A stretch of 64,000 nt of DNA from a virus (IMGVR_UViG_3300021963_000037:32001-96000), one strand, 5' to 3'; shown: positions 1,943 to 64,000, counted from the stretch's first letter. Made by a program: numbers and translations. The notes: generated from the sequence alone by a model not told the origin.

Positions 1943-1950
1943 ATTTTAAT

Positions 1951-4311: not shown

Positions 4312-4891
4312 GATATTTACCAAAGGTGATAAAATCCATGCTCTCTTATCAAATAAACGTTTTCCAAACATTCTATTCCCGGTAAGAGCAATTATCTATG
4401 ATGTCAAGTTCGAAGAGAACATGCCAAGATATATGCTTAAAATCGACAAAATGTACGATGATGTTGATTTCCTAAAAAGATACTTTTTTGGGTTAACTTT
4501 TGACGGTAGTTTTGAAGGCAAACAAACTAAAATTAATTTAAGTCGCCGAGAATATTCTAAAGTAGAAGACCTTGAAAGACTATTCTCTGAAAAATGGGAA
4601 AGTTACATGTTTGCTGTTGATTCTATCTTTTGTGTTAAAACAAGAGTTGAACAATTAGAACTATTCAATAACCTACACGATTTCTTTATTGAGAAACATT
4701 TAAAAGAGCTTTATGAGCTCTCAAACCGTTCAGCCTATTCTAAAGGCAAATATTACTATCACGTTAAAGATGAGTTTGTAATTGCTCTTAAGAAATTCTT
4801 AGGCGAAAGAGCACCTGATCAAAAAGATTATTTTGATAAATTATTATATAGATCAGACTCTGCTGAACTAGATAAAATAGACAAGGGATAA
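4298..4891 (+). CDS. Hypothetical protein
   Basis: 197-aa ORF coupled to neighbours. Confidence 0.65.
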   Translation: MIKHKIFTKGDKIHALLSNKRFPNILFPVRAIIYDVKFEENMPRYMLKIDKMYDDVDFLKRYFFGLTFDGSFEGKQTKINLSRREYSKVEDLERLFSEKWESYMFAVDSIFCVKTRVEQLELFNNLHDFFIEKHLKELYELSNRSAYSKGKYYYHVKDEFVIALKKFLGERAPDQKDYFDKLLYRSDSAELDKIDKG

Positions 4892-5628: not shown

Positions 5629-5653
5629 AACCCTGGCATTATTTTTAATATAT

Positions 5654-5669
5654 GAATATATAAGATAAG
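5654..5669 (+). promoter_or_regulatory. Late promoter heading the structural module
   Basis: GAATATATAAGATAAG, identical 16-mer to 48221-48236. Confidence 0.7.
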
Positions 5670-5701
5670 GTCGATGTGCCTTTAAAAAAATGATGAGATA
5701 A

Positions 5702-28742: not shown

Positions 28743-31700
28743 ATGGCTATTCAAATTAATCTCGACGCAACGAACAACAATATAGACGATTTATCATTCG
28801 GTCTATTAAGAACAAATCCTGCTCTGTCAACTAACGCAAAGTTAGTTGTTGATAGTGACGGGTATATTTTCATGGATGCTTTTTTAGCAGATAGTGAACT
28901 TGTAAAAACAGGGTATAGAAAGAATCCTATTAACCCAGACTCTGGAAATTATTCAAATGATGTTGCTAAGTTCTTCGGTTCTCTAGCAAATAATATAAAG
29001 TATAAAACTGGAAGAGTTTCTTCTGATGTTAACGTATATACTGATTATGCATTTCAATATGAAACACAGTATAGTTATGGAGCATCTTTCAACAACTCTA
29101 AAATTTACAAAGAGCAATATAAATTCTTTGCTCCTATTTGGTTAGATAAAATCATGCCGACTAACTTTGTAATTTACAGAGTTAATGGAACTGTATATTC
29201 TGAAAACTATGCAGAAACAATCAATGGACAAAATGGTCGTATTTTAGAATTGCTAAGAAATGCGACTCTTGTTAAATCATTTGACTTAACTGAAAATTCA
29301 TCAATTGGTAGATATTTAAGACGACATGTAAATGATGAAAAGTTCCCAACATCACCTATTTCTCAAAACTTTGAAAGAGACCAATATTCTATTTTTAGAG
29401 GTATTGATACTGTAAAAGGTGGTTTTGTTGAGAAAAAAGAAAATCTACATGAAGATTTTACGAATCATGATAACTTAGAAATTTTTAGCAATGAAGTATT
29501 CTCTTCTGCTTTTGAAAGAACTGGAGTTGCGGTTGCTAATTTAATTAACTTAGAATTTTTATTTGATGATTTCCAAGCGGACAATTATGACATATACAGA
29601 TATTTTGGAGTTTATGTAACTCCGCATAAAGAAGGCTACTTTGATGTTGATCGAGTAGTTAACAATGATACTAGAGAAGGAATATTTGTTGATAGAGCAA
29701 GCGCTGTTAGTACACTGGACCGAACTGGAACAACACTAACACATCTTGATATGTTACCTAAGTATTCTGAACTATTGTTTCCATCATTGAATTGGGTTAA
29801 ATCTAGAGATGGCGAATATTTTCATATTAGAAATTCTGAATTATTTACTGAAACTGATTTTTTACCAGTTTCTTTAAATAAATCCGCAGAATCTGAATTT
29901 AAAGGAGCTACAAAAATAAACAACTTACAAATTGAAGATTTTTCAGTAAATTTACGAGATTTCTTAAAACTTGAAGTTGTTCAAACTCCATCAAATGGAG
30001 ACAAAATATTTATAGTTCCATATACTGAATTAAAGGCAGTTGGATTTAATGCTGCTGAATATACAATTGCTGCTGAAAATTCTTTAGCAGCCGGAACATT
30101 TACTGATAATAAGTTTTCAATTAATGGTACTCTAGTTGATGTTACTAGAGCTCTTGTTGGATGCTTATCACAATCTGAATATGGTTATAAAATATCATAC
30201 GAAGGTACTAAGATAATTTTAGAAGATTATGCAGTTGGTTCTACACGAAAATCAACAATGTTTGGAATTAGAAAGGCAAATATATCTGATTTCCTATTAG
30301 TTTCTGAAGGTTTATTAGAAGTGCCAACAAATACAAATTCAACTATCGTAACAAACTGGGATATTTACTATCCTTACGGTGGAGCAGTTGAAAACCGAGC
30401 AGTTCTTGTTAAAACTGAAAATAAAGGTGTAGTTTCTATTGGAGACTTGGTTAAATCTGCGGTTTCAGATTCTTATGTAAAAATAACTCAAATCGTCGAA
30501 GATCCAAAACAAGGTTTATGGAGAATTATCTTTGAAAAAGAGATTCAACTTCCAAATTCTAGAACAATTAATGTTTATCAAAAGTATCAAACTTCTTTTG
30601 GTAGATTCCAGATATTCGATCTTAAAGATTTTGATTTTGATTTTCATGATACTTCTAATTCTGATTTAGGAGAGCTAGGCACTGAAGCGTACATATTAAC
30701 ATCTCAACAATATGCTCAATATTCTCCATCATCAAATCCTGATATTTCAATACCTCAGGAAAACTATTATGCTAATTTGCTACCAGTCACTGTTGAAGAT
30801 GTTATTGATAGAAGATCAAAAGTAAATTCATTAGAAGATCCAGGACAGGTTACTTCGTTTATAACTAATGTTACTTCCGAATATAATAGACTTAATGAAA
30901 ATGAAATTAAAGAAACTGCTATTTTAAGTAGAGTAGTTCCAAGAATCAATAAGTTTGTACTTAAAGACGGATTTAATGCGAGAATGAAGCCCTATCACTT
31001 ATCTGTGAATGAATCATTTGGTATTAATAATCTATCGCCAAGCCTTAATGGTGATACTAGAAGTCCCGAACTTCTTAATATGGAACACTTCCATATTAAT
31101 AAAACACCATCGTTTGTTTTAGCAGATACTGGAAATTTATATAAAAATTCAAGCTATTTAGATTTTGGATTAGGTAGAATATTAAGTGCAGCGGATTTAA
31201 AGTCAACTACTTTTAACTATTTTGACAAATATTTTACTTGGAATGGAGGATATTCTGAAGCTGTGGTATTACAAAGTATCACGCAACGTCCAATTGGAGG
31301 TATTAATTTCCAAACTACATTTAATTTTAGTGGACCACTTTCCGTATCATCAAGAACGTATACAACAGGTACTTCTATTTTTAGAGTTGGTGGTACTCCA
31401 GCAATGTATGACGCTGATGTTACTATTCTAGCGGGCAGTAACAAAATGGTAACAGTCGGAACACATGGCACGAGTTCTATCAATTCATTTAAAGTAGGAG
31501 ATGTTGTTTATAGAAATTTAGATTCAAATGATGATCCAACCGGGTTATTCATTAAGAATAAAAGACAAAAAAGATATTCTAAATTTTCTGGTGGAAATTC
31601 AATAAATCAATATCCATCAACTATATTCAGAGGATTAAGATATACTTTAAAAAATAGGAAGGAAAGTACACTATCTCTTCCAAAGGAATTTATTGCATCA

Positions 31701-44941: not shown

Positions 44942-46004
44942 TATATCAGAAGACTTAAAACACACAATCAAACTCTTAGTTAAGAAAGTATTAGTTCAAG
45001 AACATACGGTCCAAAATAAGACGATGATTAAGGAAATGCCAGGGCGAATAACTCTGGCATGTCCTTATTGTGGTGACTCGTATTCCGATGACAAAAAGAA
45101 ACGTGGTAATATCTATTGGGACACTTTACAGTATCATTGTTTTAACTGTTCCCAACATGGAGATGTTTATAGTTTCTTAAAAGATCACGGTGTCCGTTTT
45201 GGTAGTTCTGAAGATTCAGTTCAAGTAATTGAGTGGATTAAAGAAAACAAAGCAGAGTCCCATCATGTTGATGTTTTACAGTATGGTATATTTGAAAAGA
45301 TTGGACAATTAGCGCCAACTATCGAAGAATTACGAGTTGCACTTAAGATGACCTACATTTCGGTAGGAGATGCACCTTGGTTATATCTAAGAAAGAGATT
45401 TCTTTCAAACAAATTAGAAAACTTCCTCTATTCCCCCAAAGACAAAAGAATCTATGTTCTAAATTTAGGACCAGACGGAAAAGTAATTGGAATGCAGTCA
45501 AGAACTCTTGTTAAAACTAGCAATTCTAAATACTTAACCTACGATCTTGAAAAGATATTAGAGTGGATGGGAAAGCCTATTGAAATAGATGAAGCAGAGA
45601 AAATGGCAATTAGTAAAATATCAACCTTATTTGGTATTATGAAAACTGACTTTACTCGACCAGTTACAATATTTGAAGGACCATTAGATCGAATGTTTAT
45701 GAATAATTCATTAGCACTTTCCTCTGTAGGGCGAGACACGACTGAGCTCGACCAGGTTCCAACAATTCGTTATATGTTCGATAATGATAAAGCTGGTAAA
45801 ACAAAAATGATTGAAAAGCTAAAAGCTGGAAAATCAGTCTTTATGTGGTCCAAATTTCTCAAAGATACTAAAATGGATAAATATAAAGAACCTATTAAAG
45901 ATTTAAACGACTTAGTAATGGCCGCTTACATAAACAAAAGTGATTGTTTAACTAAAATAAACGACTACTTTTCAAACTCAATGTTAGATGCGTACTACTT
46001 ATAA
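44925..46004 (+). CDS. gp61: DNA primase gp61
   Basis: CPYCGDS...YHCFNC zinc finger; FEGPLD, FDNDKAG, KDLND TOPRIM motifs. Confidence 0.92.
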   Translation: MTSTSNISEDLKHTIKLLVKKVLVQEHTVQNKTMIKEMPGRITLACPYCGDSYSDDKKKRGNIYWDTLQYHCFNCSQHGDVYSFLKDHGVRFGSSEDSVQVIEWIKENKAESHHVDVLQYGIFEKIGQLAPTIEELRVALKMTYISVGDAPWLYLRKRFLSNKLENFLYSPKDKRIYVLNLGPDGKVIGMQSRTLVKTSNSKYLTYDLEKILEWMGKPIEIDEAEKMAISKISTLFGIMKTDFTRPVTIFEGPLDRMFMNNSLALSSVGRDTTELDQVPTIRYMFDNDKAGKTKMIEKLKAGKSVFMWSKFLKDTKMDKYKEPIKDLNDLVMAAYINKSDCLTKINDYFSNSMLDAYYL

Positions 46005-46023
46005 AAATAGACAGGTTCTAGCT

Positions 46024-46227
46024 ATGATAGAACAAGAATTTGAAGATTTCGAAAAGGACAGAGAAAACAGCAGCAAAGGACTAAAAACCATTGTTGACTT
46101 TGGCGTTTCGAAAATTGAATATGATGGTACAACAATTAAAACACAGTTGAAACCTAAGTTCAAAGCAAAGATTAAAAGCAGTGTTTATATTAAACCTAAC
46201 TCAGACAGCAAAAACTCGCTGTTTTAA
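46024..46227 (+). CDS. Hypothetical protein
   Basis: Small ORF between primase and UvsY; probable start MIEQEF. Confidence 0.55.
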   Translation: MIEQEFEDFEKDRENSSKGLKTIVDFGVSKIEYDGTTIKTQLKPKFKAKIKSSVYIKPNSDSKNSLF

Positions 46228-51814: not shown

Positions 51815-53668
51815 ATGGCACTACAAAAACTTAGAGATTTCTATCAATCTTCGAACACTGAAGTATTCAATGACTTAATGAAGAATAAAGTTGTTGTGTC
51901 AGAAAAGATAGCAGCACCGTCTCTTTATGTTAGAAGAGGTTTAAATGGTTTTGAATTTTTTAAAAATGGAACCAGCGAAGAGCTATCGATTGTTGATAGA
52001 ACTTTAGTATCTTTGTATGAAACTGCAATTAAATATTTCCAAGGACTTTCTCCAGAAATTAAACAATCGATGCCAATTGATTGGAAATTTGGATTTGAGT
52101 ATCTTCCGGAAGCAGATGCATCGCCTTTAAATTATGATTCAGTTCCATTAAACTATTTAATACTTACACATATCCAAGTTACTGGAGATAATGGTAAACC
52201 TAGAAAGATTATCAATGATACACATGTCCTAAATAAATGGGCAAAAACTTTTGAGGTTCAACAACCACCTGTTCTTTTTGAAGGAATGTTAGATGTAAAT
52301 CAACAAACCAGATTAAGAGATTTGGTATCTATGAGTAACGAACAATACCAAAAAGAATTCTCTGACAAATCTTTTACAAGAGAAGCATTTCATATCTTTA
52401 ATAGTAATTTATCAAAATCTACATTAAATGATAATTTAGATAAAGAAATTGATGGTTTAATTATCTCATTTGTAGAAGGTACAAAAATCAAATCATTTAA
52501 AATGGAAGCCTTTGATCGTGTAAATGAATCAAAGGATGATAGAGAGTCTAGCCATATGTATCAGATCACAATGGTTGACTTATTAGAATTCTTAAATGAT
52601 TTTAATTTAGACGAAATTGAATTAAACGAGGAGAACTCGGATTTACGATACATTGAATTAGTTTCAGCTGTCTACAATCAATATCTAAACAAAAACGCAT
52701 TTAAATATGTTGGAGCTAAATTTGATTCAGCTAGCTTTGCTACTGCAGAATGCTTCCAACTTAATACACAATATATTAAGAACGAAACAACATTAAAGTA
52801 TCTTGAGAACAATGTTCTTGCTGAGCTTTATAAAATTGTTGTTGGTAGTTTAAGAAAGAAACGAGTTAAAGAGAGTTCAATTATTACTGGACTTTTATTT
52901 ACTCAATTAAATGAAATCGTAGAAAAGATCGAACAAAAAATCTTTGTTGAAAATGCTGATGAACATGCAGTATATGATTTCAAAAATTATATCATTCATG
53001 ACAGAGTAGCAAACAGTCAAAAAATTACTGAAGCTCTTAAGATTGATTATCCTGCACAAGGAAAAGAGAAAGTAAATATCTTTGTTGGTAGATTCCAACC
53101 TTTTACTTTAGGACATGTTAAAGTTTTAGAAACTCTTTATAAACAAAACGGTTTTCCAGTTATAGTATTCTTAGTTAAAGCAAAAACTGTTAAGAAAGAG
53201 GATGCTGTTAAACGTCCTTATGATGTTGAAACACAAATTGAAATGTTTAACAATGTACAGAGAGAATACAAATTCTTAAAGCAAGTTATTGTTGTTCCTT
53301 CTGCTGCAATTGATGTTATGTTCAATCAACTTAGACCAAATTACGAACCAGTTCTTTGGGGTACCGGAACTGACCGAATGAAAGCATATGGATATATGGT
53401 TAATAATGACAAGTATCGTGATGAACTTGGAGTTTTACCAGAATTTGGTTTATATGAAATCCAAAGAGGAGATGATGATATTTCCGCAACAAAAGTTAGA
53501 CAATCTTTACTTGATAACAACGTTAAAGAATTTAACAAAATGACCCCAAACTCGCTTCACTCTATGTTTAATGACCTTAAACAAAAATTAGAGACTTCTA
53601 TTGCTAATGAATCAGTAGAACATGATGAAGAGTTTTTAACATTCGAACAATTTATAAATAAGATATAA
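51815..53668 (+). CDS. Degenerate ligase-fold domain fused to an HxGH-type nucleotidyltransferase
   Basis: VSEKIAA and IDGLII...SFK in the N-half; GRFQPFTLGH, GTDR, ISATKVR in the C-half. Confidence 0.7.
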   Translation: MALQKLRDFYQSSNTEVFNDLMKNKVVVSEKIAAPSLYVRRGLNGFEFFKNGTSEELSIVDRTLVSLYETAIKYFQGLSPEIKQSMPIDWKFGFEYLPEADASPLNYDSVPLNYLILTHIQVTGDNGKPRKIINDTHVLNKWAKTFEVQQPPVLFEGMLDVNQQTRLRDLVSMSNEQYQKEFSDKSFTREAFHIFNSNLSKSTLNDNLDKEIDGLIISFVEGTKIKSFKMEAFDRVNESKDDRESSHMYQITMVDLLEFLNDFNLDEIELNEENSDLRYIELVSAVYNQYLNKNAFKYVGAKFDSASFATAECFQLNTQYIKNETTLKYLENNVLAELYKIVVGSLRKKRVKESSIITGLLFTQLNEIVEKIEQKIFVENADEHAVYDFKNYIIHDRVANSQKITEALKIDYPAQGKEKVNIFVGRFQPFTLGHVKVLETLYKQNGFPVIVFLVKAKTVKKEDAVKRPYDVETQIEMFNNVQREYKFLKQVIVVPSAAIDVMFNQLRPNYEPVLWGTGTDRMKAYGYMVNNDKYRDELGVLPEFGLYEIQRGDDDISATKVRQSLLDNNVKEFNKMTPNSLHSMFNDLKQKLETSIANESVEHDEEFLTFEQFINKI

Positions 53669-54812: not shown

Positions 54813-56165
54813 ATGAATTTCGACGATTTTTTACAATCACTTAACGAATCTGAATCAGTAAATGAAGCAGGAATTGTCCTAAAAAGACAATATACTGAAG
54901 CTCATCCTGCTAAAACTGCATCTAAAACAGCGGTTATTCGTAATAAAGTTATTGAAGCCATCAAAGATGGTAAATTAACTAAAGAGGAATTTAACCTAAT
55001 TTTGACTAAAGTTTCTGAAGACCAAAAAAGATGGTTAAAAAGAAATTCTAGTCTTTTTAATGTTTCTGAAGACGGTGTTACATTGTCAAAAGCAGGACTT
55101 AAAATATATAATGAGCTTACAAAAGAAAATAAAATACAAAATAAACCTAGATTTGAAATGAAAAGATTAGTTGAATCATTCTCAGAATTTGTTGAGAATT
55201 TAAACAATGACCATATTAATGAGGCATTTGCATCTTCAAAGCTTGCAAGTCTTTTGACTGGCGGCGCAAAAATGCCAAAGGATCTTCCAGGAGCATTCTA
55301 TAATATGTCACAATTAGCACTTGATAAAATTCAAGATGTTGATATTATTGAAATGGATCCAGAAACTGCTAAAAAAGAAAAAAGAGCTAACGCTGTATAT
55401 TTCTATTTTACAACAAATGAAAAAGAGAATCCATATACTCAACAAGATTGGGGTACAAGAACAATTCCAGCAAATACTCTATTAGCTATCACTAATGGTC
55501 AAAATGAATGGATGAATGCTGAATGGTCAAGCAGATATGGTAGATCATCAAGCAGAACTTTAAAAGTAACTAAAAGAGATGATTCTGCTGGTATTTCAAA
55601 ATCTTCTGCAAACTCTAGTTACGGTTCTAAAATCTCAAGCTTAAAACAAGTTGTTGAACTTGCTGATAGAGCATATTGTTTAGATTTAGATATTCTTAGA
55701 GCAAGGTATTCTACAAGAGCTTTAAAAGATGAAAGATATGCTGCTAAAAAAGGAGCTGTTGCATTCCAAACTGATAAAGATTTTAAAGCAGAAAACTTAA
55801 AGAGATACAATGAAATTTTAGCTACTAAAGCAGCTGCATTACCATTAGATTCTCTAGTTGCAAACGCTATTGATACAATCGCTGGTCAAATCAAAGATGG
55901 TTTATCTAAAGGTTTAAAAGGAAGATACGATGAACTTATTGTTGGATTAGATCCAAAAGGAAGAGAAGTTAAAATGAACGATGCTGCAAATCTAATGAGA
56001 AATATCTTAGATGAATATTCTAGATATTGTGGAGATGCTGCAAATCAAGAAAAAGAAGTAGCTGCAGGTTACGGTGGTTCTTACTACGAAGGTAGCATGA
56101 AACAACGCGCTAAAAATCTTCAAGATTACATGAAGAAAATTGACAACCTAAACTACGCTTGGTAA
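54813..56165 (+). CDS. Putative internal head protein (possible nested start at 55158)
   Basis: MNFDDFLQSLNE start, ESVNEA site, internal MKRLVESFSEF; GATATATA at 54781. Confidence 0.6.
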   Translation: MNFDDFLQSLNESESVNEAGIVLKRQYTEAHPAKTASKTAVIRNKVIEAIKDGKLTKEEFNLILTKVSEDQKRWLKRNSSLFNVSEDGVTLSKAGLKIYNELTKENKIQNKPRFEMKRLVESFSEFVENLNNDHINEAFASSKLASLLTGGAKMPKDLPGAFYNMSQLALDKIQDVDIIEMDPETAKKEKRANAVYFYFTTNEKENPYTQQDWGTRTIPANTLLAITNGQNEWMNAEWSSRYGRSSSRTLKVTKRDDSAGISKSSANSSYGSKISSLKQVVELADRAYCLDLDILRARYSTRALKDERYAAKKGAVAFQTDKDFKAENLKRYNEILATKAAALPLDSLVANAIDTIAGQIKDGLSKGLKGRYDELIVGLDPKGREVKMNDAANLMRNILDEYSRYCGDAANQEKEVAAGYGGSYYEGSMKQRAKNLQDYMKKIDNLNYAW

Positions 56166-56169
56166 TAAT

Positions 56170-56715
56170 ATGAAACATGTACAACTATACGAACAATTCG
56201 TAACTGAAAAAGCATACCAATTGACTGGAATTTACGGTGCAAAAGGTATTATTGGAAAAGTTCTATTTGCTTTTAAGAAAGAAATCGAACGAATTAAATA
56301 CGAAGGAGATGCTGACTCAACTTTAGCAGAACTTAACGATGTTTGGACCAAATGGGCTGATAAAGACGGCGCAAAAATCATCGAACAGGAAGTAATGAAA
56401 GTTGTTAAAGACAAGGAAGCTATTGTTTATATAGTTGCAACTTTATCTGAAGCTCAATGGATCGCAGATGTAGTTAATAGATTAAACACACCGACTGGTA
56501 CAGAACTTTTTGTTTCTTTAAATAACGATTTCGTAATTAATGTTGGTTTTGCGGATGATGTTGATGGAGATAAATTCTCTAGAAAACTTGATGGTATGAC
56601 AAACACTGCGGTTCCAGTAAGTATAACTGAAATTGTTGGATCTTTCGATTCTGCAGTAGGTTATAATAATGTTGAAATCAGAAAGAGCATCTTTTTATCA
56701 ATAGATGCAAAATAA
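56170..56715 (+). CDS. Putative internal head protein
   Basis: Starts MKHVQLYEQFVTE. Confidence 0.6.
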   Translation: MKHVQLYEQFVTEKAYQLTGIYGAKGIIGKVLFAFKKEIERIKYEGDADSTLAELNDVWTKWADKDGAKIIEQEVMKVVKDKEAIVYIVATLSEAQWIADVVNRLNTPTGTELFVSLNNDFVINVGFADDVDGDKFSRKLDGMTNTAVPVSITEIVGSFDSAVGYNNVEIRKSIFLSIDAK

Positions 56716-56723
56716 TTTATAAG

Positions 56724-57191
56724 ATGCCTGCAACAAGCAAATCACAACAAAGACTAATGGGAGCAGCATATGCCGTAAAAGCCGGATATATGCTGCTTTC
56801 TGATGTTTCTGCAGAATACCAAGACAAAGTAAAGGACTTGACACTTTCAATGACTTTAAAACAACTTAAAGATTTTGCAGAAACTCCACATGAAGGACTT
56901 CCTGAGACTGTTGAAGAATCTAGTTTAGGATTTGCAACAAATACTGGTGGACCACAAAGTACTTTTATGCCAGGTGCTGGAATGGGAGCTATTAAACTTC
57001 CAAATATGGGAACTGGAGAAATAGGTTCTGGTGATGTTCCAAAAGGAGCTGGTTGGGCAGAAGACGAATACGAGAAAGAGAAAAAGAAAAAGAAAAGAAG
57101 AGAACAACTTCAAAAGAAAACTGAAAAACCAGTAAAAACATTTGAACAGTTTATTTTCGAAAAACTTAATCCATCTATAAAGGACAAATAA
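56724..57191 (+). CDS. DUF3008-like protein
   Basis: MPATSKSQQRLMGAA...QLKDFAETPHEGLPE; C-terminal VKTFEQFIFE. Confidence 0.6.
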   Translation: MPATSKSQQRLMGAAYAVKAGYMLLSDVSAEYQDKVKDLTLSMTLKQLKDFAETPHEGLPETVEESSLGFATNTGGPQSTFMPGAGMGAIKLPNMGTGEIGSGDVPKGAGWAEDEYEKEKKKKKRREQLQKKTEKPVKTFEQFIFEKLNPSIKDK

Positions 57192-57458
57192 ATGCTAAAC
57201 ATTATTTTACTAGGCGGAGAAAAAGACAAAAATTGGTCAGAAGCAGCAGTTGAAAAAATCATTAATTCAATTAATTCTTGCCAATCTTTAAAACAACTAA
57301 TGACATGTCGAGCATTAGTTAATAATTACCTATTTGCTGCAATCATAGCAGGAAACGAGACAGATGATAGCAATCTACGATTAGTCTCATCTCTATTACA
57401 CTTCTTAGTTAAGAGTAAAGAGAATCAACTTATTAAGGAAATGGATCTTATTTCCTAA
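57192..57458 (+). CDS. Hypothetical protein
   Basis: 88 aa, INSCQSLKQL motif. Confidence 0.55.
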   Translation: MLNIILLGGEKDKNWSEAAVEKIINSINSCQSLKQLMTCRALVNNYLFAAIIAGNETDDSNLRLVSSLLHFLVKSKENQLIKEMDLIS

Positions 57459-57474
57459 AATATTTCACTAAATA

Positions 57475-57512
57475 TTTTTTTATGTCATGGAAATTGTTTA
57501 TATTTACATATA
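57475..57512 (+). promoter_or_regulatory. Possible host-sigma (Bacteroidota -7 like) early promoter
   Basis: TATATTTA at 57499-57506 resembles TAnnTTTG with one mismatch; the upstream T run lacks a clean TTTG. Confidence 0.35.
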
Positions 57513-57531
57513 ATATTTAAACAATCTCAAC

Positions 57532-57762
57532 ATGATAAAATCAGCTAAAGACAGAAAGAAAGGTCCAATCGAAATCGATCTTAATGGACCAGAAGGAAAT
57601 GCATTCTACTTAATGGGAATGGCAATGGACTTTGCTAAAAAGCTCGGTTGGACCAAGGAGCAAAAAGCAAAACTTAGAGTAGAACTGACATTCTCAGACT
57701 ACGAAAATCTAATTAACATCTTCGATAAACATTTTGGTGAATTTGTAATTTTATATCGATAA
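57532..57762 (+). CDS. Conserved small phage protein
   Basis: IEIDLNGPEGNAFYLMG...DYENL...FDKHFG. Confidence 0.7.
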   Translation: MIKSAKDRKKGPIEIDLNGPEGNAFYLMGMAMDFAKKLGWTKEQKAKLRVELTFSDYENLINIFDKHFGEFVILYR

Positions 57763-57766
57763 TTTC

Positions 57767-57793
57767 GAAACTTTTTTGAACTTACTTATATAA
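57767..57793 (+). promoter_or_regulatory. Class A promoter heading the modification cluster
   Basis: GAAAC-N17-TATAA. Confidence 0.7.
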
Positions 57794-57812
57794 TTACTAA
57801 ACATATCGAGAA

Positions 57813-58106
57813 ATGAGTATTTTAGAAGAAGCAGACAAAATCGTTAATCACAGATCAGAAGAAGCAGATCGTAACTATGGACCTTTCTCAGAAGGTATGG
57901 ATCGTGCAGCAATGATTTTTCAAGGAATGACTGGAATCCCAGTAACTGGAGAACACATGTTTAAAGCACTAGTTGCTTTGAAATTCTCTAGAGAATCTTA
58001 TAACCATAAGAAAGACAATTTGCTTGATGCAGTTGCCTATATTCAAGGATTAGAGAATTACCTTAATGAGATTGAAGAATCTCGCCCAATCAAATCAAAT
58101 GACTAG
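57813..58106 (+). CDS. DUF6378-like protein (all-alpha NTP pyrophosphohydrolase-related)
   Basis: SILEEADKIV..R....YGPF...LKFSRE...KDNLLDAVAY. Confidence 0.7.
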   Translation: MSILEEADKIVNHRSEEADRNYGPFSEGMDRAAMIFQGMTGIPVTGEHMFKALVALKFSRESYNHKKDNLLDAVAYIQGLENYLNEIEESRPIKSND

Positions 58107-59148
58107 TATCTACGATATTAAAGAAAAGTTAGCTGGTAAAAAGATTGCAATTGATGATGTTGTAACAACTTACAGCTCGAAAAAAGAATCACATAAATCT
58201 GCGTGGGCATATTTACTTATGTCCCAATTAAAAAGTCTAGGATTGGATGTTACTGTTTTAACAAAAGACGGTAACATTCATGATTTTGACGTTTGGATGG
58301 TAGCCTTACCAATGGAATTCCAAGGTAGTTACAATCTTTTTGGCGGTGCAGGAGATGAACCAGCTGCCAGAATCCAGAGATTTATTGATTTTAAAGGAGA
58401 TGTGTATTGTCTTAATCGAGAAATGCCAGATGTTGGAGCATTTGCTCAATCTCGTATGAATTCTTGTACAGACAATTGGAAATCATTAGACGTTGCAATC
58501 CTGTCATCAAGGTCAAAATCAGTTGAGACAATTGATTTAACCCTTAACTCAGATACCTTTGTACTAGGCGATAGCCATTCAGTATCTGCTTACGTTCCAG
58601 GAGCAAACATTTCCAGAAATGATGGTAAAACATTATTTGGAGTTATTAAAGAAGGAATGCAGAATTATATTCCTGCTGGAACAAAACACATAATCACATA
58701 TTTTGGTAACATTGATGTTAGACACCATTTGTGCCGCCAACCAGATCCAATTGCAGCAACTGAATCTCTAGTTAAAAACTATGTTGAACACTTAAAAAGT
58801 TTAGGCATGGAAAAGATCAGTGTTATGCAATTACTACCAATCGACCACGAAGAGAGAAGAATTCCAAAGACTGGATTCTATAAAGGAACACCTTTTTATG
58901 GAAATTTAGAAAAAAGATTGGAAATTTGTCGAATTTTTAACAATAAGCTGAGTATATATCTAAGTGAGGCCGGATACGAATTTATCCAATGGCCAAGCGA
59001 ATGGTACAAGCTAAGCCCAAAAGACTATGCGGACATTTATATGGAGAAACCAGGATCGGTGCACCTTTCACGAAATTATTATCAATATGATTTCGAAACT
59101 GGCCAAAAGAATCCAGCATTAAAACCAAAAGTCACGAGTTTATTTTGA
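58099..59148 (+). CDS. BGT N-domain-like region fused to an SGNH/GDSL-like domain
   Basis: N-half LKSLGLDVTVL...YNLFGG...VYCL; C-half VLGDSHS, FGNIDVRHH, GSVHL; start moved to 58099. Confidence 0.5.
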   Translation: MTSIYDIKEKLAGKKIAIDDVVTTYSSKKESHKSAWAYLLMSQLKSLGLDVTVLTKDGNIHDFDVWMVALPMEFQGSYNLFGGAGDEPAARIQRFIDFKGDVYCLNREMPDVGAFAQSRMNSCTDNWKSLDVAILSSRSKSVETIDLTLNSDTFVLGDSHSVSAYVPGANISRNDGKTLFGVIKEGMQNYIPAGTKHIITYFGNIDVRHHLCRQPDPIAATESLVKNYVEHLKSLGMEKISVMQLLPIDHEERRIPKTGFYKGTPFYGNLEKRLEICRIFNNKLSIYLSEAGYEFIQWPSEWYKLSPKDYADIYMEKPGSVHLSRNYYQYDFETGQKNPALKPKVTSLF

Positions 59149-59173
59149 AACCTTTTATAAATTATAAGTATAA
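59147..59173 (+). promoter_or_regulatory. Class A promoter for ino1
   Basis: GAAAC-N17-TATAA. Confidence 0.7.
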
Positions 59174-59196
59174 CTTAAAACAAATTACTAAAAATC

Positions 59197-60375
59197 ATGA
59201 GTAAAATTAAAGTTGCAATTATTGGTACAGGAAACTGTGCTAAGTCTCTAGTAGAAGGAGTACAATTCTACACGGAAAATCAAGCAAATATCGATGGTAT
59301 GATGCGTAGCGATATCGGTGGATATGGTGCAAAAGACATTGAATTTGTTTGTGCATTTGATATTGATGAGCGTAAAGTGAATCAACCATTAGGTGTTGCA
59401 TTGAAGCAACGTCCAAATTCTGCATGGGATATCGTTCCAACTATCAATTCAACAGCTCCAGTTTATGAAGCTCCAGTTATTGATGGTTATGCATTATTAA
59501 TGGACGCATACCCAGAAGCAAATCGTTTCTTGGTTTCTGAAGAGTTGAGAAATTCAACTGAGACAAATCGTACTGAATGGACTGATAAAAAAGACAGACA
59601 GTGGAAAGACAAAGTTATTGCTCAATTAAAAGAGCACGAAGTTGAAGTATTGATTAACTACTTACCAGTAGGTTCTCAAGCAGCAACAGAATTTTGGGCA
59701 GAAATCTGCTTAGAAACTGGAATTTCTTTCGTAAACTGTATTCCAGTATTTATTGCATCTGATCCGGCATGGGAGAAACGTTTTATCGACGCAGGTATTC
59801 CATTGATTGGTGATGATATGCGTTCTCAATTTGGTGCATCTATCTTGTCTCAAATGTTACAAGAACTTGCATTCGAAAGAGGTCACGTAGTAAGAGCACA
59901 CATTCAACGTAACGTTGGTGGTAACACTGACTTCTTGAATATGGAAGACAAAACTCGTTTGAAATCTAAAAAGATTTCTAAAGAGAACGTAATCCGCGCT
60001 CAAAATGATATTCGTGGAATATCAACAGAAGGTTCATTCTTACATGCAGGTCCTTCAGAGTACATCTCATACTATGGAGATAACAAAGTTGCTAACTTCC
60101 GTTTAGAACTTGAAGGATTCGGTGGAGCACCAGTTATATTTGATGCTCAACTATCTGTACAAGATAGTCCAAACTCTGCAGGAGTCGTAATCGACGCTCT
60201 TCGTTATCTTAGAGTTGCAAGAGAAATGGGAATTGTTGGTGCTTTAAGAGGACCATCAGCATTTACTCAAAAGACACCACCTCAACAAATGATGTTTGTT
60301 GATGCTGTTCAAGAATGCGAAGCTTTAGCAAATCGTAAACTTACTAAAGTTACGGAGAAACAAGTTAAAGCTTAA
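59197..60375 (+). CDS. ino1: myo-inositol-1-phosphate synthase
   Basis: VAIIGTGNCAKSLVEG, NYLPVGS, FVNCIPVFIASDP, GDDMRSQFGA, NVGGNTDFLNM, KKISK, VQDSPNSAG. Confidence 0.95.
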   Translation: MSKIKVAIIGTGNCAKSLVEGVQFYTENQANIDGMMRSDIGGYGAKDIEFVCAFDIDERKVNQPLGVALKQRPNSAWDIVPTINSTAPVYEAPVIDGYALLMDAYPEANRFLVSEELRNSTETNRTEWTDKKDRQWKDKVIAQLKEHEVEVLINYLPVGSQAATEFWAEICLETGISFVNCIPVFIASDPAWEKRFIDAGIPLIGDDMRSQFGASILSQMLQELAFERGHVVRAHIQRNVGGNTDFLNMEDKTRLKSKKISKENVIRAQNDIRGISTEGSFLHAGPSEYISYYGDNKVANFRLELEGFGGAPVIFDAQLSVQDSPNSAGVVIDALRYLRVAREMGIVGALRGPSAFTQKTPPQQMMFVDAVQECEALANRKLTKVTEKQVKA

Positions 60376-60385
60376 TTAATCCAAC

Positions 60386-60416
60386 AAGATGGAGAGTTTT
60401 GCTCTCCATCTTTTTT
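60386..60416 (+). terminator. Rho-independent terminator after ino1
   Basis: AAGATGGAGAG-TTTTG-CTCTCCATCTT then TTTT. Confidence 0.85.
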
Positions 60417-60428
60417 CAATTTAGAAAG

Positions 60429-60806
60429 ATGAAAAATCAAGAAATATTTGCATATGATTTTGATGGTGTAGTTTCATTAGGAATTAGACCAAGATTTAGT
60501 GATGATGTTATTATCACAGGTAGATGTCAAGAAGAGGCGCCACACGTTTTTGAAAAATTAGCAGAAATGGGAATCTCTACAAATGTTTACTTTAATCAAA
60601 TGACCTTACAAGAAAGGGGAAATCATACAGTAGAAGCTAGAATTTTCTCTGGTCGCCATAAAGCTAGAACTATTCATAACCTTAAAGAAGAAGGAATTGA
60701 TGTTGTTCGTTTCTTTGATGATGACGAAGTTCAAATTGCAGTTATTAAACAATGGCATCCTAATTTAGATATTGTTCATGTTGTATCAACTCTTGTAGAA
60801 AAATAA
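60429..60806 (+). CDS. Minimal (capless) HAD-family phosphatase
   Basis: YDFDGV (motif I), ITGR (II), HK (III), FFDDD (IV); start moved to 60429. Confidence 0.8.
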   Translation: MKNQEIFAYDFDGVVSLGIRPRFSDDVIITGRCQEEAPHVFEKLAEMGISTNVYFNQMTLQERGNHTVEARIFSGRHKARTIHNLKEEGIDVVRFFDDDEVQIAVIKQWHPNLDIVHVVSTLVEK

Positions 60807-60815
60807 AATTAATCA

Positions 60816-61838
60816 ATGAAATTCGGAATATTAAATATCTACATCAATACATCATGTAATACAAATCGAGCAAATGGATTAGAAATCTATTATCTTCGAA
60901 AAGCATTACTCGAGGCAGGACACGAAGTGTCTATTATTGGACATAAAAATTTAAGAAATGCCGACCAAGAATATTATGTAGATGCAAATGAAGCCGAATG
61001 GGAAACTTATGATGGTATATTCATTCAATTAGCAAAAGATAATTTCTTTGGTGGTGGATTAAAACCTCATACAGTTGCAATTGTTGAAGGTATTGCAAAA
61101 GCAAAGAACAAAATCTACAATCTTGCAACTGATCCAATGTTTCCACCAATTAATCCAGCTAGATCTTTAGCTAGATTTAATTTATGTCAAGATTATGTTG
61201 ATGTATGGGATGACCTAATCGAGGACTCGATTCAAATCTTTCCAGGAAAAGACATTAAGAAATTTAACGGATGGAAGAAGGGAAATGTAATGAACTTCAA
61301 CTTATTCGGATATATTTTTAAGAATCTATTTACTGAAAGAGAATTGGCTAATCCAACCTTATTTCAAGGAGAAGATACTAAAAAATGGGATGTTATCTAT
61401 TTCGGTAGAAACAGAAAAAGGTATCGTGAAAGCATGCTACAAAAATATATTCCAAAAGATACTAGAAATTTATTAGTTGGATATAAAAGTAAAAATGTAC
61501 CATCAACTCAAATAAATCCAGTTTCACATGACGAGATGATGTATCTTGTTAATCAATCTAAAGTTAGTCTAATTATTGGAGACGAAGAACATTTAGATAA
61601 TGTTGTAACATATCGTTTTTATGAAACTTTAGCTTCTAATTCATTAGCAGCAATTCAAATTGAATACGATCCTAACAAAGAGCTTATTCAAGACCCTGTA
61701 CTTAGAAAGGTATTATATGTTAAAAATGCCGAAGATGTTAAAGTACTAACTGAATTATATTCAAAGGATTTAATTGATCGTCAAAAACGAGAATTGGCCA
61801 GAATATTTAGTGAAATTAACAAACCTATAGAATTATAA
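60816..61838 (+). CDS. bgt: DNA beta-glucosyltransferase homolog (GT-B)
   Basis: Collinear with T4 BGT: NFFGG, KIYxLxTD, KKxDVIY, RES, LIIGD, DNxxTxRxxETxAS. Confidence 0.85.
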   Translation: MKFGILNIYINTSCNTNRANGLEIYYLRKALLEAGHEVSIIGHKNLRNADQEYYVDANEAEWETYDGIFIQLAKDNFFGGGLKPHTVAIVEGIAKAKNKIYNLATDPMFPPINPARSLARFNLCQDYVDVWDDLIEDSIQIFPGKDIKKFNGWKKGNVMNFNLFGYIFKNLFTERELANPTLFQGEDTKKWDVIYFGRNRKRYRESMLQKYIPKDTRNLLVGYKSKNVPSTQINPVSHDEMMYLVNQSKVSLIIGDEEHLDNVVTYRFYETLASNSLAAIQIEYDPNKELIQDPVLRKVLYVKNAEDVKVLTELYSKDLIDRQKRELARIFSEINKPIEL

Positions 61839-61839
61839 T

Positions 61840-62508
61840 ATGCTTACAAAAAGTCAAAGAGAACTAAGAGCAAACTACATAAAGTATCTTAATGCAACCG
61901 AAAGGATCGACAAAGATATGATTAAAGATTGCGTTATCCATTACATTAAACCCGAAGTAGATTATACTGATAAAGTATGTCTTGATTTAGGTGGAAACGT
62001 TGGTGGATTTACTAAATTAGCAATCGATCACGGTGCAAAACAAGTTATCACGGTAGAATGTGATGTTCGTAATTACACTAAACTTTCTGAAAGTTTTGCA
62101 GAAGAACCAAAGGCTAAAATTTTACATGCTGCAGTTTCAGGTTCTGACGAAAAAACAATTAAAATCTACAAAGGAACCAGAGGAGGTTCACATTGTTCTA
62201 CATCAATCATGAAAAGAAGTACTTTCCATGACTATGATGAGGTACAAAATTTGCATATTCAAGAATTGTTAGATACGTACAAACCAGATATTATCAAAAT
62301 TGATGTAGAAGGTGCAGAGTATCAAATCTTAGAATATATCGAAGCTTACTATCCTGAAGTAATTTTTATTGAATTACACATGGGAAAAGTAAAAGAGCAT
62401 GCCCAACCAGCTATTGAAAGATTAACAAATTTATACCCAATTAATGAGGTTAAAAGTTTTGTTGTCTTTAAAGAAATTGGTGGTTACGATTGTTGGTTTA
62501 AAAAATAA
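61840..62508 (+). CDS. FkbM-family SAM methyltransferase
   Basis: CLDLGGNVGGF, VECD, HAAVS, IKIDVEGAEY, IELH. Confidence 0.85.
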   Translation: MLTKSQRELRANYIKYLNATERIDKDMIKDCVIHYIKPEVDYTDKVCLDLGGNVGGFTKLAIDHGAKQVITVECDVRNYTKLSESFAEEPKAKILHAAVSGSDEKTIKIYKGTRGGSHCSTSIMKRSTFHDYDEVQNLHIQELLDTYKPDIIKIDVEGAEYQILEYIEAYYPEVIFIELHMGKVKEHAQPAIERLTNLYPINEVKSFVVFKEIGGYDCWFKK

Positions 62509-62517
62509 AATAGTAAA

Positions 62518-63567
62518 ATGAGTAATATAATTGAAAGCGTAAATATGGATGTCGTAAAAGACATTGGTCGTTTCTTTAATAAAGTAAACGAAAGAGCCCT
62601 TTATAATATGGGAGTGCTGGATAGTTATGATAGCGATGGAGACGATGCTCTTGGAGAAACTGTAGAGTATTTCCATCCTCAAATTACTCTAGATGACCGT
62701 ATGAGATATATTATGGAGAACATTGTATATGCTCCAATCTCAATGGACAATATTATTTGCAATACAATTATTTCTCACTTTTATGGAGCTCGTGGAATTC
62801 ACCAAGTTCTAACAAGAGATCCAAATCCAAAAACAGCATTAATTGATTTTGAAAGACTTTTAGTCGATCGAGATTATGAGAATAAAATTCGTAAGAATTT
62901 AGAAGATGCGGTTTCTTTAGGTTTACCAATTTATGGAAGTACGGAATTACGTACAAGTCTTTTTGGAGCAGCCAATAATTATGTTGCTCAGTTAAGAAAT
63001 CAACCAAGAGATGCTCATAAAATTAATATTCTTTTATGGGTAGCTTCTTTTATACCTCGAGGCATCACAGGAAGGATGGCCCAGGTTAAATCTCTAAACG
63101 AGATGTATGATATTATCTCTTCGCTTGAAGGAGTAGGACAGTACTACGGTTACCACTGTTCAACGTCTAACTCGGTAAATCCAAGAATTCCAATCAACCA
63201 TGACGAAAGATTTTGCGTACCAGGTCCTGGAGCAAGATTCACATTAGACCTAATGTTTGGAGAAGGTTGTAATATTCCTTATGGTGATAGAGTTATTTGG
63301 TTCCGTGAAAATTACAAAGACCTTATTGGAGATATTCCTCTACATGAATCAACACATAATGTTTATGTTGATGGTAAGAAGATTTTCCAAGAAGAACAAA
63401 ACGATCTTAAAACTTATGGTTGTGAAGTTGGTCTTTGTCAGTATGGCGTTTATTATCGCTTAAGAAACAATCCACATTTAATTAGTCGTCGAAAAGTAGC
63501 AAGAACTGATAATTCAGTTATGGAATACTTTTTTAACAATAATTTTGAACAAAACTCGCTTTTCTAA
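62518..63567 (+). CDS. aGPT-Pplase1 / hmdU-kinase helical-domain-like DNA modification protein
   Basis: GVGQYYGYH (HhH-like), PGPGAR, CEVGLCQYGVYYR. Confidence 0.65.
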   Translation: MSNIIESVNMDVVKDIGRFFNKVNERALYNMGVLDSYDSDGDDALGETVEYFHPQITLDDRMRYIMENIVYAPISMDNIICNTIISHFYGARGIHQVLTRDPNPKTALIDFERLLVDRDYENKIRKNLEDAVSLGLPIYGSTELRTSLFGAANNYVAQLRNQPRDAHKINILLWVASFIPRGITGRMAQVKSLNEMYDIISSLEGVGQYYGYHCSTSNSVNPRIPINHDERFCVPGPGARFTLDLMFGEGCNIPYGDRVIWFRENYKDLIGDIPLHESTHNVYVDGKKIFQEEQNDLKTYGCEVGLCQYGVYYRLRNNPHLISRRKVARTDNSVMEYFFNNNFEQNSLF

Positions 63568-63590
63568 TATAATAACCTAATAACGTTATT

Positions 63591-64000
63591 ATGAAAGCAA
63601 CGAGTATCAAAAACCTTTTCTTAGACGATTTCAGACATCCTTATGATTGCATGAGCTACATGCCTTACCGAATCGGTACAAATGCAGCAATGTATACTCA
63701 ACAAGAATGGTCAGTTGTTAAAAGCTATGATGAATTTACCAAGTGGATTACTTTAAATGGTCTTCCTAAAATGGTATCATTCGATCATGATTTAGCAGAT
63801 GAGCATTACAGTCCAGCAATGTGCGGAGACGGAGCTGACTATCCAACTGATTTTGATGAGAAAACAGGTTTAGACTGTGCAAAATGGTTAGTTAATTATT
63901 GTATCGACAATAAATTAGAATTTCCATGTTTTGAAGTACATTCAATGAATCCAGTTGGCTCAGAACGAATTAAAAATTATATTCAAGATTACATCAAATT
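63591..64000 (+). CDS. Cyclic-phosphate-processing receiver-domain protein (3'-truncated, absent from the ORF track)
   Basis: Hand translation: MKATSIKNLFLDDFRHP...VSFDHDL...KTGLDCAKWL...VHSMNPVG; TGAAC-N17-TATAA at 63546. Confidence 0.8.
   Translation, partial: MKATSIKNLFLDDFRHPYDCMSYMPYRIGTNAAMYTQQEWSVVKSYDEFTKWITLNGLPKMVSFDHDLADEHYSPAMCGDGADYPTDFDEKTGLDCAKWLVNYCIDNKLEFPCFEVHSMNPVGSERIKNYIQDYIK

Follow-up and report, generated by a model that had tools for sequence, protein, structure and literature searches.

A phage gene cluster that may attach a self-made cyclitol to hydroxymethylcytosine in DNA

Phage DNA hypermodification through 5-hydroxymethylpyrimidines is already known. Such modifications decide which restriction systems and other nucleic-acid defences a phage escapes, and their study has yielded enzymes used to map hydroxymethylcytosine (hmC) and hydroxymethyluracil (hmU). 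Thymidine hypermodification in phages ViI, M6, PaMx11, PhiW-14 and SP10 relies on a 5-hydroxymethyldeoxyuridine (5-hmdU) DNA kinase together with an amino-acid:DNA transferase (aGPT-Pplase2/ADDT), according to the relevant portions of PMC8989533 and PMC11472151. The T-even hmC pathway consists of the dCMP hydroxymethylase gp42, the dCTPase gp56 and alpha- and beta-glucosyltransferases. The locus that we compare with these systems is a cluster of seven tightly packed open reading frames (ORFs), all on the + strand, at positions 57813-63567 of a 64,000-nucleotide stretch of viral DNA (the window), which covers bases 32001-96000 of the virus record IMGVR_UViG_3300021963_000037 (139,480 bp in total). 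Coordinates without prefix are those of the window, and the prefix G000 marks coordinates of the whole record. The record is linear according to IMG/VR and about 50 % complete according to CheckV; on its + strand it carries the genes for T4-type proteins of the capsid, portal, terminase, clamp loader and replication machinery.

The seven genes (Table 1) encode a DUF6378 protein, an SGNH-fold protein called p3, the inositol-phosphate synthase homologue Ino1, a small HAD-like protein, a homologue of the T4 DNA beta-glucosyltransferase (BGT), an FkbM-family methyltransferase and a stand-alone HMUDK_hel protein. An earlier note, made from the sequence alone, had delineated this contiguous cluster correctly as to position and strand; its labels DUF6378, Ino1, T4 BGT and FkbM are upheld by Pfam, and the dCMP deaminase that it reported elsewhere in the window was located. 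We put at about one in two the probability that the cluster is a hypermodification cassette by which a cyclitol made by the phage, possibly O-methylated, is attached to hmC in DNA. A wider formulation falls somewhat short of an even bet. It holds that phages synthesise a cyclitol, either myo-inositol or its O-methylated form, and bond it covalently to the bases of DNA. In this phage the bond would be a cytosine 5-methylene ether, formed at the replication fork by an HMUDK_hel-family Cys/Glu transferase tethered to the clamp and by an SGNH enzyme, and the same module would plug into at least three other chemistries, i.e. 7-deazaguanine, TET/kinase/ADDT on thymine, and dUMP-hydroxymethylase/ADDT. 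In the openly accessible full texts, no DNA base that bears inositol was found to be described; two papers bring up inositol along with phage DNA modification, but only in the names of structural matches.

Compared with thymidine hypermodification, the proposed pathway would likewise be post-replicative and act on a 5-hydroxymethylpyrimidine by means of an HMUDK_hel-family protein with an E-x3-C motif, and the use of a hydroxyl nucleophile would have a precedent in ViI gp247. Moreover, other lineages place Ino1 and its HAD-like partner directly between ADDT and a P-loop kinase. In contrast to thymidine hypermodification, the base is of the cytosine type (as judged from an Asp described below), no kinase and no Pfam match to ADDT are found, an SGNH-fold partner stands where 5-HMUDK fusions have their kinase, and the proposed nucleophile would be a phage-made cyclitol and not a host amino acid or polyamine. 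With the T-even pathway the phage shares the gp42-like Cys and Asp, NTP (nucleoside triphosphate) pyrophosphatase-like genes, a full-length BGT and T4-like virion and replication genes, whereas BGT is optional here and p3, HMUDK_hel, Ino1, HAD, FkbM and DUF6378 have no T4 counterpart. A third comparison is with mycothiol synthesis, in which Ino1 is followed by the GT-B enzyme MshA, which glycosylates inositol phosphate, and then by a phosphatase. Common to Mycobacterium tuberculosis and the phage are the Ino1 family, a phosphatase-like partner and, in several phage lineages, glycosyltransferase neighbours; however, the phage partner is a tiny capless HAD-like protein instead of a member of the IMPase family, and the context is one of DNA modification. 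Finally, a homologous p3::HMUDK_hel protein exists in Aeromonas phages that carry gp42, but it is a single fused protein and Ino1 and HAD are missing.

Table 1. Features of the cluster and its surroundings (window coordinates)
Feature	Position	Strand	Evidence or remark
dCMP deaminase	1906-2388	+	phrog_174 6.8e-53; Pfam dCMP_cyt_deam_1 3.7e-23; 55 kb from the cluster
Repeated promoter-like element, core TTGTTTATATTTACATA	57449-57522	+	5' of a 76-aa ORF (57532-57762) that precedes the cluster
DUF6378 protein, 97 aa	57813-58106	+	Pfam PF19905, E 8.7e-9; first gene of the conserved cassette
p3, 349 aa	58099-59148	+	Rossmann-like N-terminal domain and SGNH domain; C-terminal 'SLF'
Ino1, 392 aa	59197-60375	+	Pfam PF01658 (Inos-1-P_synth) 3.5e-22
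Hairpin, 12-bp stem, then T-run	60386-60412	+	Terminator-like, directly 3' of the ino1 stop codon
Small capless HAD-like protein, 125 aa	60429-60806	+	Presumed phosphatase, from motifs
T4-type DNA beta-glucosyltransferase homologue, 340 aa	60816-61838	+	Pfam PF09198 3.6e-7
FkbM-family S-adenosylmethionine methyltransferase, 222 aa	61840-62508	+	Pfam PF05050 1.9e-14
Stand-alone HMUDK_hel protein, 349 aa	62518-63567	+	Pfam PF18723 3.6e-12
cREC_REC-domain gene, variable neighbour	63591-63998	+	Pfam PF20274 1.9e-20; extends past the window end

Linkage of Ino1 and its HAD-like partner to DNA modification genes

A scan of viral contigs for this Ino1 gave 123 relatives, 80 of which were kept (81-100 % identity), and the other cluster genes were sought in these loci by tblastn; many of the contigs are short, so that misses are partly due to contig ends. 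The p3 gene was found in 79 of the 80 loci, DUF6378 in 77, HAD in 76, FkbM in 70 and HMUDK_hel in 68, as against cREC in 11 and BGT in merely 6. The order is constant: DUF6378 (directly 5' of p3), p3, Ino1, HAD, optionally BGT, FkbM, HMUDK_hel, NTP pyrophosphatase, polymerase. Since the synteny from DUF6378 through p3, Ino1, HAD and FkbM to HMUDK_hel recurs in related contigs, the arrangement is not a matter of chance. At its fixed position, the HMUDK_hel gene exists in two divergent forms, with either 70-99 % or about 27 % identity across the 80 loci. BGT, which had been seen as a core partner of ino1, does not fit that role: from its presence in 6 loci only, it is an accessory add-on of this phage and a few relatives, and two loci with BGT (L076 and L082) are devoid of the FkbM gene.

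Among cultured phages, tblastn detects Ino1 in 19 records, of which 16 belong to Stenotrophomonas phages, 2 to Caulobacter phage Cr30 and 1 to Ralstonia phage RP13. In all three groups an HAD-like gene follows within about 700 bp of ino1 and the neighbours are DNA modification genes. In the Stenotrophomonas phage Marzo, the order is FolE, Ino1, HAD, QueC and a DpdA-like gene. In Cr30, the pair is preceded by Tet_JBP, dGTP_diPhyd_N, ADDT (1.3e-52) and a weak TAGT-like match, and in RP13 by HMUDK_hel (3e-47) and a helicase, with HMUD2 further on. Anti-defence genes also occur a few kb 3' of Ino1 and HAD, namely Tad6 and Acb1 in RP13 (L003 11302-12221) and Acb3 in Cr30 (L002 14855-15655).

A wider scan used an alignment of seven diverse Ino1 proteins as query, which was needed as the Cr30 Ino1 used singly retrieved 2 loci only; it gave at least 498 relatives, 80 of which were kept. 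Markers of DNA modification were searched within 8 kb with a panel of 28 query proteins (phmmer, E 1e-4) and checked by Pfam on 148 neighbouring ORFs from 13 representative loci. Altogether 146 loci from viral contigs and cultured phages, corresponding to 102 distinct Ino1 sequences, form 20 single-linkage clusters at 70 % identity. A DNA modification marker is present in the locus for 16 of these 20 clusters, and the co-occurrence proposed as a test in the earlier note is thus observed, also in all three cultured carrier groups. With the same flanks, panel and threshold, none of 18 loci centred on PhoH contains any marker, a control that is small and covers this phage's own lineage only. In each of five large related contigs (99-159 kb), the sole HMUDK_hel match of the record adjoins Ino1 and HAD. 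The single ADDT match adjoins Ino1 in four of five records, RP13 giving no ADDT match at that threshold.

Four architectures can be distinguished. Type A, the hmC type, contains a thymidylate-synthase (TS)-like protein with Asp, dCMP deaminase, Ino1, HAD, HMUDK_hel, p3 and often a C5 DNA methylase; the deaminase adjoins Ino1 in lineages L101, L115 and L145. Tet_JBP, FkbM or GT1, ADDT, Ino1, HAD and Ploopntkinase3 make up type B, while type C, of the 7-deazaguanine kind, consists of FolE, sometimes GT1, Ino1, HAD and QueC/DpdA. Type D comprises a family-A polymerase, HMUDK_hel, ADDT, FkbM, Ino1, HAD, a TS-like protein with Asn, and MazG. FkbM also adjoins Ino1 in the TET/ADDT loci L123 and L146, in the HMUDK_hel/ADDT locus L103 and in L095 and L099.

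The four cluster types plus 'none' were mapped on a quick, preliminary maximum-likelihood tree computed for 59 Ino1 sequences, which excludes 43 additional members of this phage's own clade. The mapping needs 17 changes, the minimum possible being 4; if only branches with good support are considered, type A must have changed at least 6 times, type B at least 6 times and type C at least 4 times. Either the pair moved repeatedly between cluster types or the clusters were swapped around the pair, and adjacency was kept both ways. It is this persistence of adjacency across switches of cluster type that argues for a functional coupling of Ino1 and HAD to DNA modification.

Coupling of this kind would also be expected if the cassette modifies DNA while the product of Ino1 and HAD stays off the base and has an indirect role, be it as an acceptor or carrier as in mycothiol, as an allosteric or protective molecule, or through the diversion of glucose-6-phosphate. 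The pair indeed accompanies chemically unrelated systems, including 7-deazaguanine, and glycosyltransferase-like genes adjoin Ino1 in several places (GT1 in L145 and L108, the weak TAGT-like match in Cr30, BGT in this phage). It also speaks for an indirect role that Aeromonas phages use p3 and HMUDK_hel in the absence of Ino1 and that no inositol-activating enzyme was found. However, the pair is interleaved among DNA-acting genes, not merely placed beside them, it stays adjacent to them in spite of changing cluster type, and no gene of the cluster points to any specific indirect role. We therefore regard such a role as unlikely, though a serious contender, and keep to attachment of the cyclitol to the base.

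Predicted activities of the proteins

The first step proposed for the pathway has a candidate enzyme outside the window. The gene at G000 5121-6017 belongs to the thymidylate synthase family (Pfam PF00303, 1.6e-18), and the best solved relative of its product is the T4 dCMP hydroxymethylase (2.3e-16), ahead of the CMP hydroxymethylase and of all thymidylate synthases. The catalytic Cys is kept ('FVCT'), and an Asp stands where the wild-type and mutant T4 entries differ, a position which we take to be T4 D179, the residue that specifies cytosine. When 18 TS-like proteins from related loci are aligned, those of the hmC type and the gp42 protein of the Aeromonas phage 44RR have this Asp, and those of RP13, L103 and L147 have Asn. 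The link to a hydroxymethylpyrimidine pathway, for which a search for a hydroxymethylase had been suggested, is thus supported by a dCMP-hydroxymethylase-like gene with a cytosine-type Asp. From family membership, this gene and the NTP pyrophosphatase-like gene indicate that the phage most likely produces hmC-containing DNA as T4 does.

HMUDK_hel is the sole Pfam family in the last protein of the cluster (residues 59-316), which has no kinase domain. Ploopntkinase3 and HMUD2 gave no match in six frames of the record, which is about 50 % complete, HMUD2 being silent in control genomes too. Since there is neither a kinase domain nor a match to these or other kinases, the protein is not a 5-hmdU DNA kinase; nor was a nucleobase kinase found elsewhere in the half-complete record, where an hmdU kinase had been expected. 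What the protein does have is an invariant E303-x3-C307-Q308. The pattern E-x3-C-[QEN] occurs in 81 of the 87 HMUDK_hel-family sequences gathered and in 20 of 20 ADDT sequences. Among the six HMUDK_hel sequences that deviate, three come from ORFs ending within a base of the contig end, which may be cut, and two, those of L103 and L147, are canonical HMUDK_hel proteins, each of which has a separate ADDT next to it. When the protein is compared with the HMUDK_hel protein of RP13, hhalign gives a probability of 85 % and aligns the E and the C.

The motif is of interest because of the solved glycine:DNA transferase PaMx11 gp46 (PUGT), a protein with a helical fold like that of DNA glycosylases, in which E243 and C247 are key and the Cys is proposed to form a covalent C6 adduct (from the part of PMC11472151 devoted to this enzyme). 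A weak family-versus-family hhalign comparison (8.3 % probability) superimposes the E-x3-C motifs of HMUDK_hel and ADDT, and the protein itself has no match to the ADDT profile (PF18724) at E up to 0.01. We suggest that it may work like an ADDT but, since the profile-profile comparison is weak, do not file it as one. The earlier name 'aGPT-Pplase-like' can be retained to the extent that the motif of amino-acid:DNA transferases is there, whereas the family given by Pfam is HMUDK_hel and not ADDT. The protein is best described as a candidate enzyme for the transfer of a group to a pyrimidine flipped out of DNA.

The start of p3 is most likely at 58099, giving 349 aa and not the 360-aa ORF, since its homologues have 349 aa. 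No Pfam family is recognised in p3, and profile searches of solved structures gave nothing credible for p3, HMUDK_hel or the HAD-like protein. An AlphaFold2 model built with 22 homologues (pLDDT 88.4, pTM 0.87) predicts an SGNH/GDSL fold for residues ~144-338, with a Foldseek probability of 1.00 to several GDSL esterases. VIA-align yields Z 11.9 to 2hsj (root-mean-square deviation 4.0, 168 residues); carbohydrate esterases follow with Z 9-11.6, as do PatB and OatA, which are O-acetyltransferases of peptidoglycan. Invariant across the 22 homologues are G157, D158, S159 and H160, G203 and N204, and H322, presumably the GDS(H) serine of block I, the asparagine of block III and the histidine of block V. 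Three residues before the His there is no Asp, and the catalytic unit may be a Ser-His dyad. DSSP assigns an alpha/beta structure to the N-terminal ~143 residues, which a single weak hhalign alignment (8 % probability, E 0.0043) connects to the BGT of this phage; of the 'BGT-N/SGNH fusion' initially suggested, the SGNH half is therefore confirmed by the predicted fold and the BGT-N half is not established.

An SGNH enzyme raises the question of whether the substrate is DNA at all. SGNH and FkbM proteins commonly act on carbohydrates, the fold matches of p3 include O-acetyltransferases of peptidoglycan and lipopolysaccharide, several GT2 glycosyltransferases, a 2-oxoglutarate (2OG) oxygenase and a collagen-like fibre are encoded elsewhere in the record, and three giant-virus loci carry Ino1 without DNA modification genes. 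Ino1, HAD, FkbM, BGT and the SGNH protein might accordingly be imagined to make or remodel a glycoconjugate of the host or the virion, for instance a wall polymer, an inositol lipid or a glycosylated fibre. This is very improbable: the glycan genes lie tens of kb away and no cluster protein is found beside them, the constant partners are DNA-directed (HMUDK_hel, ADDT, Tet_JBP, TS-like, DpdA), and p3 carries a tail of the polymerase type.

That tail is shared by few proteins. Of the 147 ORFs called in the record, five end in SLF: the C-terminal half of the DNA polymerase (G000 101804-103000), RNase HII (G000 29117-29746), p3, the HMUDK_hel protein and a 79-aa ORF at 45988-46227; the ending of the FEN/RNase H homologue is KLF. 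Among the p3 ORFs of related loci, 85 of 101 have an [STG]LF tail, and xLF was counted 34 times among the listed tails for 47 HMUDK_hel ORFs. Such tails are missing from the Ino1, HAD, FkbM and BGT ORFs, and the pattern sets the two DNA-directed proteins, p3 and HMUDK_hel, apart from three small-molecule enzymes. The C-terminal tail of the T4 polymerase binds the sliding clamp, and in this phage lineage SLF may serve for clamp binding. Since no sliding clamp gene was recognised among the candidate ORFs and the polymerase-like tail is the starting point, it is from this likeness that we infer clamp tethering of the SLF proteins.

A direct connection between p3 and HMUDK_hel comes from Aeromonas phages, where the two are fused. 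Homologues of p3 are present in 43 cultured-phage records and Ino1 in 19, and no organism is common to both sets. ORF233c of phage 44RR2.8t (p3::HMUDK_hel, ~795 aa, phrog_17781) has 33 % identity to p3 (E 2e-51) and 24 % to HMUDK_hel; the 44RR2.8t.2 locus is at L009 5459-6982. As p3 is joined to HMUDK_hel where 5-HMUDK has its kinase domain, the fusion suggests that the SGNH domain supplies a second catalytic step. In 44RR and B614, a sodium:solute symporter adjoins the fusion (Pfam 6e-53 and 7e-52), as is also apparent from Table 3 of PMC1524935. In Aeromonas phage 25, the p3 homologue comes after a UDP-galactopyranose mutase (5e-54) and an uncharacterised ORF (L157 2773-4954). A sugar-like co-substrate would be in keeping with these neighbourhoods, since in the absence of Ino1 another carbohydrate-supply gene adjoins p3. 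The Aeromonas phages concerned encode gp42, and their cytosine modification may be more than plain hmC.

Ino1 of the phage aligns with the M. tuberculosis Ino1 structure 1gr0 (E 2.3e-79) over residues 3-99 and 140-366, a match that includes both the MIPS (myo-inositol-phosphate synthase) catalytic domain and the N-terminal NAD-binding region. A synthase of a five-membered cyclitol phosphate, 6k96, is also a relative (4.1e-47). The start of the HAD-like gene is most likely the ATG at 60429, giving 125 aa, because the hairpin at 60386-60412 covers the TTG start of the 135-aa ORF called mechanically and homologues begin near this Met. This hairpin lies inside the cassette, where it may terminate or attenuate transcription or stabilise the RNA.

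In 13 homologues of the HAD-like protein from four phage groups, including Marzo, Cr30 and RP13, the residues D10, D12, G13 and V14, T30, G31 and R32, K78, and D98 and D99 are invariant, and in all of these phages the gene adjoins or follows ino1. All four HAD motifs (DxDx(T/V), S/T, K and DD/ED) are hence present in the form DxDGV, TGR, K and DD. The protein has no match in Pfam (E up to 1), in NCBIfam or, by profile, in PDB; Atlas features give a weak lead (0.88-0.89) to viral Acid_phosphat_B / HAD_PNKP clusters, and matches to pentatricopeptide repeats were dismissed as repeat artefacts. The label 'HAD phosphatase' thus has the four invariant motifs on its side and no family or structure match; we call the protein HAD-like from its motifs, and phosphatase activity is inferred from them.

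BGT of this phage is a full-length homologue: it scores 30.5 bits on Pfam PF09198 (cut-off 27), aligns with 1bgt over residues 1-323 of 340 (6.9e-15) and, by tblastn, is 28 % identical to T4 b-gt along 95 % of its length. In the alignment with 1bgt, the positions that we take to be catalytic or UDP-binding in T4 BGT (E22, D100, R191, R195, R269 and E272) all have the same residue in the phage protein (gl-E-iyy, la-TD-p, n-R-kry-RES, ty-R-fy-E-t). FkbM is equally well assigned, with 54.6 bits on PF05050 (cut-off 22.7) and 5.3e-19 and 69.1 bits on TIGR01444 (cut-off 37.7). A complete BGT with the catalytic residues kept, a hydroxymethylase in the record and a location just 5' of the DNA polymerase gene are what a plain T4-style glucosylation of hmC would call for, with the remaining genes as chance neighbours in a plastic region near the polymerase. 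But it is BGT that is rare among the 80 loci and the other genes that are near-constant, HMUDK_hel, p3 and the Ino1-HAD pair recur jointly in other orders and other lineages, p3 and HMUDK_hel have polymerase-like tails, and the PhoH-centred loci are free of markers. Plain glucosylation is accordingly improbable as an account of the cluster.

A possible route to a cyclitol-bearing base

If a cyclitol is attached to hmC, the following sequence of events can be envisaged. The dCMP-hydroxymethylase-like enzyme would make hm-dCMP, and the NTP pyrophosphatase-like genes would aid the incorporation of hm-dCTP, as in T4. Ino1 would convert glucose-6-phosphate to inositol-3-phosphate, from which the HAD-like protein would strip the phosphate before or after transfer, and FkbM could optionally O-methylate an alcohol of the ring. 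On newly made DNA, where p3 and HMUDK_hel would act, probably held by the clamp via the SLF tail, HMUDK_hel would attack C6 of hmC so that an exocyclic methylene forms, to which a hydroxyl of the cyclitol would add. A comparable step is described for the serine:DNA transferase ViI gp247, in which the serine hydroxyl is the nucleophile that adds to the exocyclic methylene (in the passages of PMC8989533 on this enzyme). For p3, we can only speculate that it acylates the hydroxymethyl to provide a leaving group, in the stead of the missing kinase, or that it O-acylates the attached group. BGT would glucosylate either the remaining hmC or the cyclitol, and the expected product would be a base of the 5-(inosityloxymethyl)cytosine type. 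A route via CDP-inositol was also considered, with the cytidylyltransferase-like gene at 51815-53668 as its candidate, and was rejected as this gene resembles an NMN (nicotinamide mononucleotide) adenylyltransferase.

Several points weigh against attachment of a cyclitol. The evidence at hand comes from sequence, fold prediction and gene order, and no enzyme for the nucleotide activation of inositol was found. Pfam scans of the record, itself about 50 % complete, reveal neither a kinase nor another known hydroxymethyl-activating enzyme. Homology between HMUDK_hel and ADDT is without statistical support, since hhalign gives 0.2 % with the Cr30 ADDT and no more than the value quoted above for the two families. 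Concerning the cyclitol itself, the product may not be myo-inositol, as the Ino1 family includes the five-membered-cyclitol synthase 6k96, and the phage protein, with 287 bits on NCBIfam TIGR03450, does not reach the equivalog cut-off of 638; the partner, moreover, is assigned to HAD by motifs only. The occurrence of p3 and HMUDK_hel without Ino1 in the 43 records mentioned earlier means that these proteins do not need it. The 7-deazaguanine clusters offer no obvious attachment chemistry, so that the shared role of Ino1 and HAD might be a different one.

The linkage has its own exceptions, to be set against it in the same way. Four of the 20 Ino1 clusters have no DNA modification context; three of them resemble giant viruses of eukaryotes (Rpb1, TFIIB, asparagine synthase), and the fourth is a 6-kb contig with only Ino1, HAD and a kinase-like ORF. 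Furthermore, all the genes in question lie in early or replication regions, and shared expression timing and the plasticity of the region near the polymerase could add to the linkage. As an observation apart, the Ino1 relatives in the giant-virus-like loci L126, L137 and L154 have neither an HAD partner nor DNA modification neighbours.

Genomic surroundings and implications

The cREC_REC gene that follows the cluster is probably outside the pathway. Beyond it come an NTP pyrophosphatase-like gene (phrog_173, 1.1e-12) and the N-terminal half of the DNA polymerase. This family-B polymerase, just past the right end of the window, is split into two parts about 3.9 kb apart (G000:C1 96504-97913 and 101804-103000; L006 1504-2913 and 6804-8000), with the genes for both ribonucleotide reductase subunits and a 248-aa ORF between them; the polymerase is likewise split in L095. 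A megablast search of the cluster against cultured phages gave no match, and Rfam, searched for 56000-64000, a single match far under the gathering score.

An element of about 60 nt with the core TTGTTTATATTTACATA has 8 good copies (at most 2 mismatches) on the + strand of the 139-kb record. One copy, at 57494, is just 5' of the small ORF starting at 57532; the seven others, also on the + strand, are at G000 24259, 25796, 30142, 30504, 31262, 121482 and 137868 and precede early or replication-type genes, e.g., the FEN/RNase H gene. The element is a putative promoter. A generic sigma-70 scan found 34 sites as compared with 32.7 in shuffled sequences, i.e. no excess. The expression 'class A promoters' is the earlier note's own. 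Many structural genes have a box of the ATATATA(A/G) type upstream instead of the TTGTTTATATTTACATA core.

Other genes of the record can be mentioned briefly. The 617-aa protein encoded at 51815-53668 has a C-terminal nucleotidyltransferase domain most like NMN adenylyltransferases and an N-terminal part of ~380 aa, and may belong to NAD salvage. To the left of the window (G000 ~11.7-24 kb; L004 11736-19864, L005 1870-5953), genes for DUF2827, three GT2 glycosyltransferases, DUF6445, a collagen-repeat fibre with an S74 chaperone domain, a 2OG-Fe(II) oxygenase and an ATP-grasp-like protein may constitute a set for the hydroxylation and glycosylation of the fibre; a further GT2 is encoded inside the window at 4891-5628. 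The phage also has genes for ClpB-like, ClpP, Hsp20 and DnaJ proteins and a homologue of ribosomal protein S21 (L004 3077-6956, L005 7394-9585).

If the proposal is true, a cyclitol on a base would add a chemically new class to the natural modifications of DNA, and there would be a whole family of cyclitol-bearing DNA bases. Being isobaric with hexoses (+162), such a cyclitol could be mistaken for a glycosyl group in routine mass spectrometry. Two enzymes would come with it, one a DNA group transferase of a new kind and the other an SGNH enzyme directed at DNA. Cultured carriers of Ino1 and HAD within modification genes exist in Cr30, RP13 and the Stenotrophomonas Menderavirus phages, and, since at least 498 stretches of viral contigs encode Ino1 relatives, the trait is widespread in nature.

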